Source of the DNA: Lachnospiraceae bacterium
Lineage (GTDB): Bacteria > Bacillota > Clostridia > Lachnospirales > Lachnospiraceae
Direction: 5' to 3'
Length of the DNA stretch: 64,000 bases
NCBI GenBank assembly: GCA_015057615.1
Contig: SVEA01000031.1
Coordinates: 11,432-75,431 of the forward strand
Within the stretch, counting starts at the first letter, position 1. The number at the start of each line of letters is the position of its first letter. The notes beneath the pieces are model-generated. The model made no database searches. It was not told the DNA's origin and was given only the letters and a program-made list of their open reading frames with translations. A program made the translations under genes and the position numbers. Of this stretch, positions 9,745-47,828 are shown piece by piece.

Positions 9745-9918
9745 TACCCTAATACCTCCGTATTAATCAAAGTTCTTCATAGAATTCGAATCTAAGGATT
9801 GCAATTGCCATATCCCTAACATTATAACATGTAGAATACATTCTATGTATAACTTAATACAGGAATATCAATGAAATGTAAAGTTGTTTTTTATGGAAAT
9901 TTTTATCGTATAGGATTT

Positions 9919-10140
9919 GAGTGCCAAAAACTATCCTAGCAAATCGGCTTCGTCAATTTGCATAAACCAATGGAATATTTAAGTAATAGGAAATAATATT
10001 TTAATTTGCAACTGTTTGAAGTCGTTGGTACTTAGACCCACGTATTTTGTGGTCTTATGTACCATTACGTACTTCAATCCAAGTATTGCGTTTTTTGCAA
10101 TGCTTGGCGAAACTGTGTGTTGCGAATGAAATTTGTTTTA
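9919..10140 (-). mobile_element. Family B non-autonomous repeat (right end plus core), MITE-like
   Basis: Begins GAGTGCCAAAAAC; 10010-10140 is the reverse complement of 41735-41870 and partly 39615-39708. Confidence 0.7.
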
Positions 10141-10400
10141 TGTGAATTGGAATCTTCCTGAGAACTGCAATTTGACTGCTTTCTATGTTTTTATATTACC
10201 AGCAAATGGGCTACTGAATTCGTCTTGAATGAATATCTGCGATATATTATAATAATTGAACCGGTATGAGTGCTATAGATCCTATCGATTATGTACCATA
10301 ATAAGATCGTATCTATCAGCTTGGCTAAGATCGGCTGACATGGCAAAATACCGAGGTTTTGCAATTGCCGATACATAAAGAATAGGAAAGAGGATTTCGA

Positions 10401-13311: not shown

Positions 13312-13516
13312 GTTACTGTTCCCACCCACCATGTATACCATGTTATGATTTCGTCAAATGTATCCGAATCGGAGACGCTTTCGCTTAAGATTTATTACGT
13401 AGCGGTACATAAGACCCCAAAATACGGAGCCAAAGTACCAACGAATGCAAATACTCCTGATCGGATATCATTTGCCGAAATCATAGGATAGACTTTGCCC
13501 ATGTGTGAACAGTAAC
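13312..13516 (-). mobile_element. Family A MITE, full-length 205 bp
   Basis: TIR GTTACTGTTC(C/A)C at both ends; flanks TCGGTCAG / TCGGTGGG (6/8, degenerate TSD); homologous to 24564-24735 and 47624-47828. Confidence 0.8.
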
Positions 13517-24563: not shown

Positions 24564-24735
24564 GTTACGGTTCACACATGGGCAAAGTCTATAATATGAT
24601 TTCGCCAAATGATATCCGACAAGGAGTATTTGCATTCGTTGGTACTTTGGCTCCGTATTTTGGAGCCCTATGTACCATTACGTAATGCAATTAAGCGAAA
24701 GCGTCTCCGATTCGGATACATTTGATGAAATTATA
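24564..24735 (+). mobile_element. Family A MITE, right end missing
   Basis: Starts GTTACGGTTCAC; colinear with 47624-47795, then diverges. Confidence 0.8.
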
Positions 24736-40499: not shown

Positions 40500-41663
40500 A
40501 TGAAAATAGGGATAATCACATTTCACTTTGCAGAAAATTACGGTGCTGTATTACAATGCTATGCATTACAGCAATACTTTGCAAATCTGGAATGTCCGGT
40601 GGAAATCATTAATTATAGACCCGATTATCATACCGTAGAGTATGCGGCGTTTCTAAGCCCGTACAAACGCTTCAAAAAGGATTTATATAAGAATAGAGAA
40701 TATAAAGGATCCGATAAAATGAAAAGGATCGTGAAAGGACAGCTATTGAACCTTAGAGATCTTTTTTATAGAGACAAAATAAGAAAAAAGCGACAGGCAT
40801 TCTTAGATTTTGAAGCGCAATATTTGAAGGAGACAAGAGAATATAAAACTTTAGAAGAAATACAGCGAAATCCGCCGGAATGTGACGCTTATATATCCGG
40901 AAGCGATCAGCTTTGGAATCCCAAGCTTACGAATGACCAGCTGGATAGGGCTTATTTTCTGGATTTCGGAGATCTTGCAGTAAAAAGGCTCACCTATGCG
41001 GTTTCTGCCTGTCAACTAGACGTAAATAAATACCGGAAGCAATTAAAAAAGCTATTGTCCAATCTGGATGGAATTTCCCTTAGAGAAGATAGAAAACGAG
41101 CGGATTTGAGTAAAATATATGATGGAGATATTGTATGCAATATAGATCCGACCCTGCTACATAAAAAAGAGTTATATGATGAAATTCGTACAAAAGAGAA
41201 GCAGGAAACAGATTATCTACTGTTGCTTTTATTTAGTAAAGAATCGCAAAGAAAGCTTAATAAGGTTCTTGCAGGTATTACCGCCGAGCTGCAGGTAAAG
41301 CCGCTTATTTTTCATCCGACCGTTTCCAGAATGAAATGGGATGTGCCGGTAATCACACCGGTGGGTGTCGGTCCCAGCGAGTATATAAGCTATATTGCCA
41401 ATGCAAAATATATTATAACCGATTCGTTCCATTGCACCGCATTTTCAATTATTTACAAAAAAGAATTTATTACATTACCCTTAAAAGGCAGGGGAGAACG
41501 TATGATAGAGCTGCTATCCGGGTTGCAGCTGGAGGACCGAATAGCCAATACGGAGGAAGATCTTTTAAAATTGATCCATAGAAAGCTGGATTATTCCAGG
41601 ACGGATGAGCTTTTAGAAGCAGCGAAGGAAAAAACGGATCATTATTTTAAAAAATATTTATGA
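40500..41663 (+). CDS. Polysaccharide pyruvyl transferase family protein
   Basis: NYGAVLQ, GSDQLWN, ISLRE, DPTLL, ITDSFH. Confidence 0.9.
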   Translation: MKIGIITFHFAENYGAVLQCYALQQYFANLECPVEIINYRPDYHTVEYAAFLSPYKRFKKDLYKNREYKGSDKMKRIVKGQLLNLRDLFYRDKIRKKRQAFLDFEAQYLKETREYKTLEEIQRNPPECDAYISGSDQLWNPKLTNDQLDRAYFLDFGDLAVKRLTYAVSACQLDVNKYRKQLKKLLSNLDGISLREDRKRADLSKIYDGDIVCNIDPTLLHKKELYDEIRTKEKQETDYLLLLLFSKESQRKLNKVLAGITAELQVKPLIFHPTVSRMKWDVPVITPVGVGPSEYISYIANAKYIITDSFHCTAFSIIYKKEFITLPLKGRGERMIELLSGLQLEDRIANTEEDLLKLIHRKLDYSRTDELLEAAKEKTDHYFKKYL

Positions 41664-41666
41664 TAT

Positions 41667-41894
41667 AAGTATCAAAAGCTGATTTATAAAATTAACTTTA
41701 TCAATTTGCACAATTTATGCATTGATAAGTAATATGAAACAAATTTCATTCACAACACATTGTCTCACCAAGAACTGCATAAAATGCAGTTCTTGGATTG
41801 AAGTACGTAAATGGTATATAAGATCACAAAACACATGATCTAAGTACCAACGACTTTAAACAGTTGCGCATTAAGATTTTGCTTCCGATTACTT
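41667..41894 (+). mobile_element. Family B repeat (left end, core and linker)
   Basis: AAGTATCAAAAGC start; core is the reverse complement of 9985-10140. Confidence 0.75.
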
Positions 41895-41934
41895 ATCTTC
41901 ATATCATCTTTATAAGATAGGTAGGGGTATCTTT

Positions 41935-47623: not shown

Positions 47624-47828
47624 GTTACTGTTCACTCCCCTAACAAAGTCTATAATATGATTTCGACAAATGATATCTGATAAGGAGTATTTGCATTCGT
47701 CGGTACTTTGGCTCCGTATTTTGGAGCCTTATGTACCGCTACGTAATGCAACTAAGCGGAAGCGTCTCCGAATCGGATACATTTATTGAAATCATAACAT
47801 GGTATACATGTTGGGTGTGAATAGTAAC
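47624..47828 (+). mobile_element. Family A MITE, full-length 205 bp
   Basis: TIRs GTTACTGTTCAC / GTGAATAGTAAC; flanks TATAAGCT / TATAAACT (7/8 TSD). Confidence 0.85.

Follow-up and report, generated by a model that had tools for sequence, protein, structure and literature searches.

Correia/NEMIS repeats in Neisseria, ERIC/IRU in enterobacteria, RUP and BOX in Streptococcus pneumoniae and bcr1 in the Bacillus cereus group are MITEs with folded interiors. They are short, non-coding, multicopy and intergenic, they have inverted-repeat ends and target duplications, and they can fold as long hairpins, in some cases with reported compensatory changes. Repeats in a stretch of 64,000 nucleotides from a Lachnospiraceae bacterium (assembly GCA_015057615.1, contig SVEA01000031.1, positions 11,432 to 75,431; called the window below) share these traits. 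They are unlike those MITEs in that an asymmetric, GNRA-capped three-way junction is best conserved and not the ends, in that the same interior lies between at least three end types, and in that the one autonomous partner found lacks this interior. This reverses the usual picture of a MITE: here the interior is the conserved part, set between several types of ends. REP and REPIN sequences, which are mobilised by RAYT, are similar in being dispersed hairpin repeats whose stems stay complementary through divergence and which persist for a long time in a lineage, but the elements described here have no RAYT, possess TIRs and target duplications, carry a larger and branched module, and show no replication-strand bias outside the window's genome. 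The Clostridiales-1 RNA (RF01699) and other Rfam motifs of gut Clostridia are, like the module, structured, of unknown function and common in gut Clostridia, but they differ from it in sequence and in place.

The initial annotation of the window described a hairpin of the form GGTAC-stem-GTATTTT-stem-GTACC in two repeat families, and all five sites in the window do hold it. The stems are also as listed there, namely GGCTCC/GGAGCC, GGCTCC/GGGGTC with two G-T pairs, AGACCCAC/GTGGTCT, and AGATCAT/GTGATCT with the loop GTGTTTT. What was called family A is the 205-bp family here (ends GTTACTGTTCAC), family B is the ~290-bp family, and the type that is commonest in other genera is named the TAGG family. 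The hairpin is the apical arm of a three-way junction of ~100 nt, and its presence in both window families comes from their carrying this one module between different inverted-repeat ends. It is fairly probable that this junction is strand-specific, forms the interior of a superfamily of MITEs that, in the genomes sampled, is limited to Lachnospiraceae, and is selected in single-stranded form on one strand.

The ~290-bp family is found in the window as a whole element on the plus strand (9915..10195), with the left end ATTTGAGTGCCAAAA and a decayed right arm, so that its right boundary is approximate. Its full core module (10000..10135) scores 72.8 bits with covariance model R1 (E 3.6e-20). 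The hairpin itself (10027..10063) consists of P3 GGTAC/GTACC, the internal loop UU/UAU, P4 AGACCCAC/GTGGTCT with a bulged C, and the loop GTATTTT, and in the single-sequence fold of this core the GNRA hairpin is swapped for a longer one, CCAAGTATTGC-GTTTTT-TGCAATGCTTGG. A further copy of the same family on the minus strand (41662..41905, 57.1 bits) has one decayed outer end and approximate boundaries; its core is at 41740-41875, its hairpin at 41813-41848, and its second hairpin is CCAAGAACTGCA-TTTTA-TGCAGTTCTTGG. The 205-bp family is represented by a complete MITE on the minus strand at 13312..13516, with the TIR GTTACTGTTC.../...GAACAGTAAC, the flanks TCGGTCAG/TCGGTGGG, the core at 13358-13466 and the hairpin at 13404-13439 (82.0 bits with the covariance model). 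This copy is a subfamily variant, and its half GGGGTC is similar to GTGGTC of the ~290-bp family, a likeness only. Another complete MITE, at 47624..47828 on the plus strand, has the TIR GTTACTGTTCAC/GTGAATAGTAAC and flanks TATAAGCT/TATAAACT that match at 7 of 8 positions, with the core at 47675-47782 and the hairpin at 47702-47737 (98.9 bits with the covariance model). A copy with a truncated right end (plus strand, core 24614-24721, hairpin 24641-24676, 96.5 bits) occupies 24564..24735, bounds which were taken over from the initial annotation and agree with the family alignment rather than being measured from it.

From the outside in, the architecture consists of variable palindromic outer arms, P1, a long arm, and P5 alongside the long arm. 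The long arm is built of P2, a CGY/RCG step with a bulged YU, P3 GGUAC/GUACC, the internal loop UU/UAU, the 7-bp P4 and the loop GUAUUUU, and P5 is a 2-bp hairpin with a GNRA cap. Alignments of 100 and 96 distinct copies, the RNAalifold consensus and single-sequence folds agree on this arrangement. A structure drawn by hand, with 30 pairs, was used to score covariation in 96 distinct copies that come from many genera. Standard pairs fill 87.9% of the cells, against 69.8 ± 0.5% after shuffling, and 566 cells with compensatory double changes were observed, against 178 ± 10, with none of 500 shuffles reaching 566. The copies are related, and the shuffle counts therefore overstate the effect; control structures in which the 3' partners were slid by 1-3 columns preserve the relatedness, and in these pairing falls to 27-41%. 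The middle stem, P4, for which covariation had originally been noted in the window copies, gives a stronger signal in this wider set: 97.9% of its cells are paired, single positions show as many as four Watson-Crick pair types, and G-U accounts for only ~1.5% of cells. The invariance of P3 in the 96 copies is an artefact of the search pattern, which fixes P3; copies from the covariance-model search do show covariation here (AGTAC/GTACT, GGCAC/GTGCC). P1 has a lineage-wide U-G pair in 35 of the 96 copies. The loop of P5 fits GNRA in 91 of 96 copies (GAGA 33, GAAA 29, GCAA 15, GGAA 7, GGGA 4, GCGA 2, GTAA 1), and its stem covaries from GC/GC to GU/AC and AC/GU. In the ~290-bp family a longer hairpin stands in place of P5, and this hairpin too varies with compensation. 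Across genera, little or no variation is seen in the unpaired or asymmetric features, which are the internal loop UU/UAU, the YU bulge, the 7-nt loop and the GNRA hairpin on one side only. All helices of the module are maintained by compensatory change, while loops, bulges and GNRA cap stay fixed. In two other genera, no two copies of a genome have the same P4 or the same arms, and all are compensated.

The initial annotation also took tolerated G-U pairs as a sign of selection, and this argument did not survive. Single-copy variants of the 205-bp family in the window's genome contain ~7 G-T and ~6 A-C events, and such equal numbers are what neutral decay gives in young copies. It is the comparison between lineages that argues for selection, and not the G-T pairs of single copies. 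Apart from this, an intergenic region of another genome (G018, L007:1130-1260) contains two or three elements in tandem, one of which has a variant apical hairpin, CAGTACATAAGGCTCTTTCTTTAAGAGCCTTATGTACTG, that is a near-perfect palindrome closed by another loop. In the window's genome the orthologous site (C13) is unoccupied.

The two strands of the module are not equivalent. When 93 elements were folded together with their reverse complements, the module strand came out as more stable in 73 (Wilcoxon p = 5e-10), with a mean advantage of 7.3 kcal/mol. No such asymmetry is seen when the outer arms are taken by themselves (274 G-U pairs on the top and 331 on the bottom strand). The core thus appears to behave as a fold that one strand adopts when single, and the arms as ordinary inverted repeats in DNA. 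Inside three scanned copies no sigma-70-like promoter or true terminator was found above chance, the two terminator-like matches being the hairpin itself. In other genomes the orientation relative to neighbouring genes is random (28 sense, 29 antisense), so that transcripts reading through from a neighbour would yield the favoured strand for only some one copy in two; the split by GC skew, 50 to 41, is also without bias. In the window's genome, 59 copies are antisense and 22 sense to genes, and the module strand lies on the negative-skew strand in 108 cases against 50. This skew bias is confined to the ~290-bp family, which is antisense to co-directional flanking genes by 49 to 10, compared with 6 to 10 for the 205-bp family. 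Gene direction and GC-skew direction are confounded in this genome, where 84% of genes are on the leading strand, and the antisense bias of the ~290-bp family is for this reason inseparable from a replication effect. A role as a guide is unlikely, since the 7-bp stem has no guide-like match to the flanking target; P2 gave a weak signal against the target (9 of 300 shuffles).

The window's genome is a 4.07-Mb assembly of 215 contigs with 40% G+C and proteins of clostridial appearance, and the regular expression GGTAY-N7-13-GTRTTTK-N7-13-RTACC finds 177 copies of the hairpin in it, 58 of which are identical in the hairpin. For a looser hairpin pattern 0.02 matches per window are expected by chance, and a control pattern read in reverse had no match in 41 genomes, so that chance is excluded as a source of the 177 copies. 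Covariance model R1 finds at least 150 copies. All but two of the 177 lie outside long ORFs. Many copies are located 17-100 bases from a contig end, and many contigs start or stop inside one, from which it follows that the repeat breaks the assembly. Lachnospiraceae are among the most abundant bacteria of the human gut, and it is at these repeats that their draft assemblies break.

Outside this genome, the covariance model was run on 151 genomes sampled evenly over the order. It matches 6 of 11 other Lachnospiraceae genomes, with 5 to at least 23 copies each, and has no match in the ~139 that represent 33 other families. In a collection with one genome per species, the pattern GGTACTT-N7-GTRTTTT-N7-TATGTACC, which leaves the stem halves free, matched more than 107 contigs, nearly all labelled as Lachnospiraceae or genera of this family (Blautia, Dorea, Roseburia, Acetatifactor, Anaerocolumna, Anaerosporobacter mobilis DSM 15930, Lachnoclostridium). 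The free 7-nt halves are complementary in almost every one of these contigs and comprise dozens of different sequences. With a 205-bp copy as BLAST query, 56 genomes match in a set with one genome for each of 400 Lachnospiraceae genera, and what aligns is the core alone (query positions ~75-142). A plasmid collection gave no match to the module, and in a viral collection only 2 of 2.9 million contigs contain it. Module copies were also seen on MAG contigs labelled Bacteroides, Muribaculum or Alistipes (L035, L036, L048, L073, L078), which could be due to mis-binning, mislabelling or transfer outside Lachnospiraceae. If the picture holds, the module would rank among the most frequent structured elements of the gut microbiome that lack an annotation, given its presence in more than half of the sampled genera, with up to ~177 copies per genome (at least 150 by covariance model), and its upkeep by compensatory change.

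The carriers of the module are MITEs, that is short, non-coding transposons of the DDE type. Their sizes are 205 bp, ~290 bp and 198-208 bp, below the ~600 bp that bounds bacterial MITEs, and none has coding capacity. The 205-bp family has the inverted-repeat ends GTTACTGTTCACAC/GTGTGAACAGTAAC, and 20 of its 43 complete copies are flanked by a perfect 8-bp target duplication, with near-perfect ones at most of the others. The TAGG family (198-208 bp; 32 copies in many genera) has conserved ends of 18 nt, TAGGYAATTGCGAAACTC, and flanking direct repeats of 9-13 bp in most copies. In the ~290-bp family the ends are ATTTGAGTGTCAAAAGCC and the duplications, of ~8 bp, are decayed. Read by eye, this family may consist of an inner element, with ends like TTCRTCAATTTGCACA as in other genera, nested in a palindromic shell of ~58 bp. 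It is worth noting that a shell of ~50-58 bp (GAGTGTCAAAAGCC ... GGCTTTTGACACTC), the same one that is the outer layer of the ~290-bp family and lies at 9915-9950 in the window, also occurs alone and empty (contig C75:15112-16778 of the window's genome, outside the window); its 225 end matches in the genome exceed the number of module-bearing copies.

Between related species the carriers have been both gained and lost. One site is occupied in a congener and empty in the window's genome. Two insertions of the 205-bp type in a close relative are absent here, as judged from one flank, the relative's contigs ending inside the element, and the 205-bp family yielded no clean empty site complete with its two flanks. 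A copy of the ~290-bp type is found at the same site in two species, with flanks that are ~71% identical and with compensated differences in P2 and P4.

For the TAGG family a candidate partner was found among viral-collection contigs. A 17-nt TAGG end is present in 24 of them, often at contig ends, and in six contigs inverted pairs of it lie ~1.76 kb apart. Between the ends there is one ORF of 507 aa, which matches DUF772 with 49.4 bits (cut-off 23.1) and, weakly and below cut-off, DDE_Tnp_1/DDE_Tnp_1_6. The best NCBIfam model is that of the IS1182 family, with 72.3 bits against a curated cut-off of 270, and the element is therefore labelled "IS1182-like". One copy is flanked by a 10-bp direct repeat, ACAAGGATAG; two others have no clear flanking repeat. 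The TAGG family shares its 18-nt ends with this 1.76-kb DUF772 and DDE_Tnp_1_6 element, unlike the two window families, which have other ends. The IS1182-like elements do not contain the module, and a 188-bp MITE with the same TAGG ends has a different interior. It follows that the module is not a remnant of the parent element and that TAGG ends move without it. The 188-bp MITE was seen at L186:4354-4537 and L187:10145-10332, with the ends TAGGCAATTGCGAAACTC and a 9-bp direct repeat, AACCAATAA; its interior is unrelated to the module yet folds well (z = -4.95).

In the window's genome, whose smallest contig is at least 2.6 kb, so that collapsed insertion sequences may be missing from the assembly, tblastn found no match to the IS1182-like transposase, and no transposase with ends matching the 205-bp or ~290-bp family was found in this assembly. 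TIR pairs 0.9-6 kb apart turned out to enclose ordinary host genes between two MITEs, with no transposase. ISL3 and IS256 copies were rejected as partners, as their ends do not match the repeats. The window's genome has two complete genes for IS256-family transposases, ISL3 copies that are broken and lie at contig ends, and a fragment of an IS200-type Y1 transposase cut by a contig end (C31:4401-5504, C46:137-1249, C209:22866-23574, C151:6604-7322, C25:14622-14789), and none of these has ends in common with any of the repeats. A likeness of the ends to IS6-like or IS66-like elements was seen by eye only and not adopted, and a 15-mer of the A-type end was too unspecific for use against viral contigs.

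These results bear directly on the interpretation offered at first, in which selection acts on an RNA or ssDNA structure, for example a recognition hairpin for an HUH or RAYT-type enzyme. Its general part is supported, as single-stranded pairing is probably under selection: covariation far exceeds both shuffled and slid controls, the cap is GNRA in nearly all copies, and the strands are asymmetric in stability. The specific part does not. That the hairpin is the recognition site of an HUH enzyme (IS200/IS605 TnpA or RAYT), with repeats like REPINs or PATEs, is largely refuted and now seems very improbable. The repeats are hairpin-shaped, multicopy and intergenic, the genome has one Y1_Tnp match, and the module strand favours the negative-skew strand there, all as this reading would have it; but the Y1 gene is an IS200-type fragment with different, unrelated hairpins, the skew bias is absent in other genomes and confounded with gene direction in the one family that has it, and no linked gene or recurrent neighbouring protein was found beside the 107 copies in other genomes. 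IS200/IS605-derived PATEs are recognised by the lack of TIRs and target duplications and by replication-strand bias, and here TIRs and duplications are present and the skew is the even 50 to 41 given above. The partner of one carrier type, the one with TAGG ends, is moreover a DDE enzyme. Another explanation dispenses with structural selection: arms may be recopied by template switching in quasi-palindromes, or homogenised by gene conversion, with the module hitch-hiking. The outer arms would suit this well: they are palindromic almost throughout, vary between the copies of a single genome and lack any asymmetry between strands. The equal G-T and A-C counts in decaying young copies would suit it too. 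Recopying would, however, erase asymmetric features, and the internal loop, the bulged YU, the one-sided GNRA hairpin and the 7-nt loop have stayed (nearly) invariant across genera; it is also at odds with the lineage-wide U-G pair in P1, and we regard it as improbable for the module.

A fold that works as DNA is somewhat less improbable, if still rather unlikely. Here the MITE would depend in cis on a top-strand hairpin or cruciform in order to be mobilised or replicated, and this structure might, for instance, draw the two ends towards each other or be bound by a DNA protein of the host. The module was seen solely inside mobile shells, its 7-bp stem is nearly pure Watson-Crick, the three copies scanned have no internal promoter, and orientation to genes is random, all of which fit such a role; GCGAAAGC-type mini-hairpins are very stable in DNA too. 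Against it, the IS1182-like element and the 188-bp MITE with the same ends move without the module, the GNRA pattern and the G-U excess are specific to one strand, and GC-skew bias is missing outside the window's genome. The fold more likely acts as RNA, made by read-through transcription, a reading to which we give slightly better than even chances. It is favoured because a DDE transposase acting on the ends is not known to need an interior fold, because the GNRA pattern is typical of RNA, and because the fold is branched, asymmetric and strand-specific with invariant unpaired residues. The missing internal promoter and terminator, the random gene orientation and the low share of G-U in P4 for an RNA helix count against it. 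In the proposed mechanism, the ~100-nt junction forms the interior of several MITE types with different ends; the carriers insert with target duplications of 8 bp (205-bp family) or 9-13 bp (TAGG family), the latter using the ends of the IS1182-like transposase-bearing element that is itself free of the module; and the fold would be selected in single-stranded form on one strand. As RNA it might bind a protein, affect the processing or stability of transcripts, or benefit the element. It is possible, if doubtful, that the module goes further and represents a new class of functional non-coding RNA that has been captured repeatedly between transposon ends, with MITE shells as vehicles and each copy kept by selection for binding a conserved partner or for a catalytic fold. 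If so, an RNA gene would have spread to tens or hundreds of sites per Lachnospiraceae genome, and the module would not derive from any transposase-bearing element. The question of what a fold carried as transposon cargo does is directly testable: the module is a defined sequence of 100 nt, there is a candidate transposase, and Anaerosporobacter mobilis DSM 15930 (locus L051) is a carrier in culture.

An unnamed structured module common to different repeat elements, as had been suggested, is the best reading of the hairpin. In copies collected across the genome and across genera pairing proved to be kept, and there was no Rfam family to which the module belonged. At gathering score, Rfam 15 had no match on the window and none on the module in 15 loci. 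On a 451-nt stretch at E ≤10 the one match was to FourU, at chance level (14.4 bits, E 4.1; gathering score 60), and is taken as noise; no description of the module was found in Rfam or in the searched literature. Two known RNAs unrelated to the module were met in the loci: a full-length Clostridiales-1 RNA (136 bits) at L030:3778-3943 and a TwoAYGGAY RNA (119.6 bits) at L121:2471-2637.
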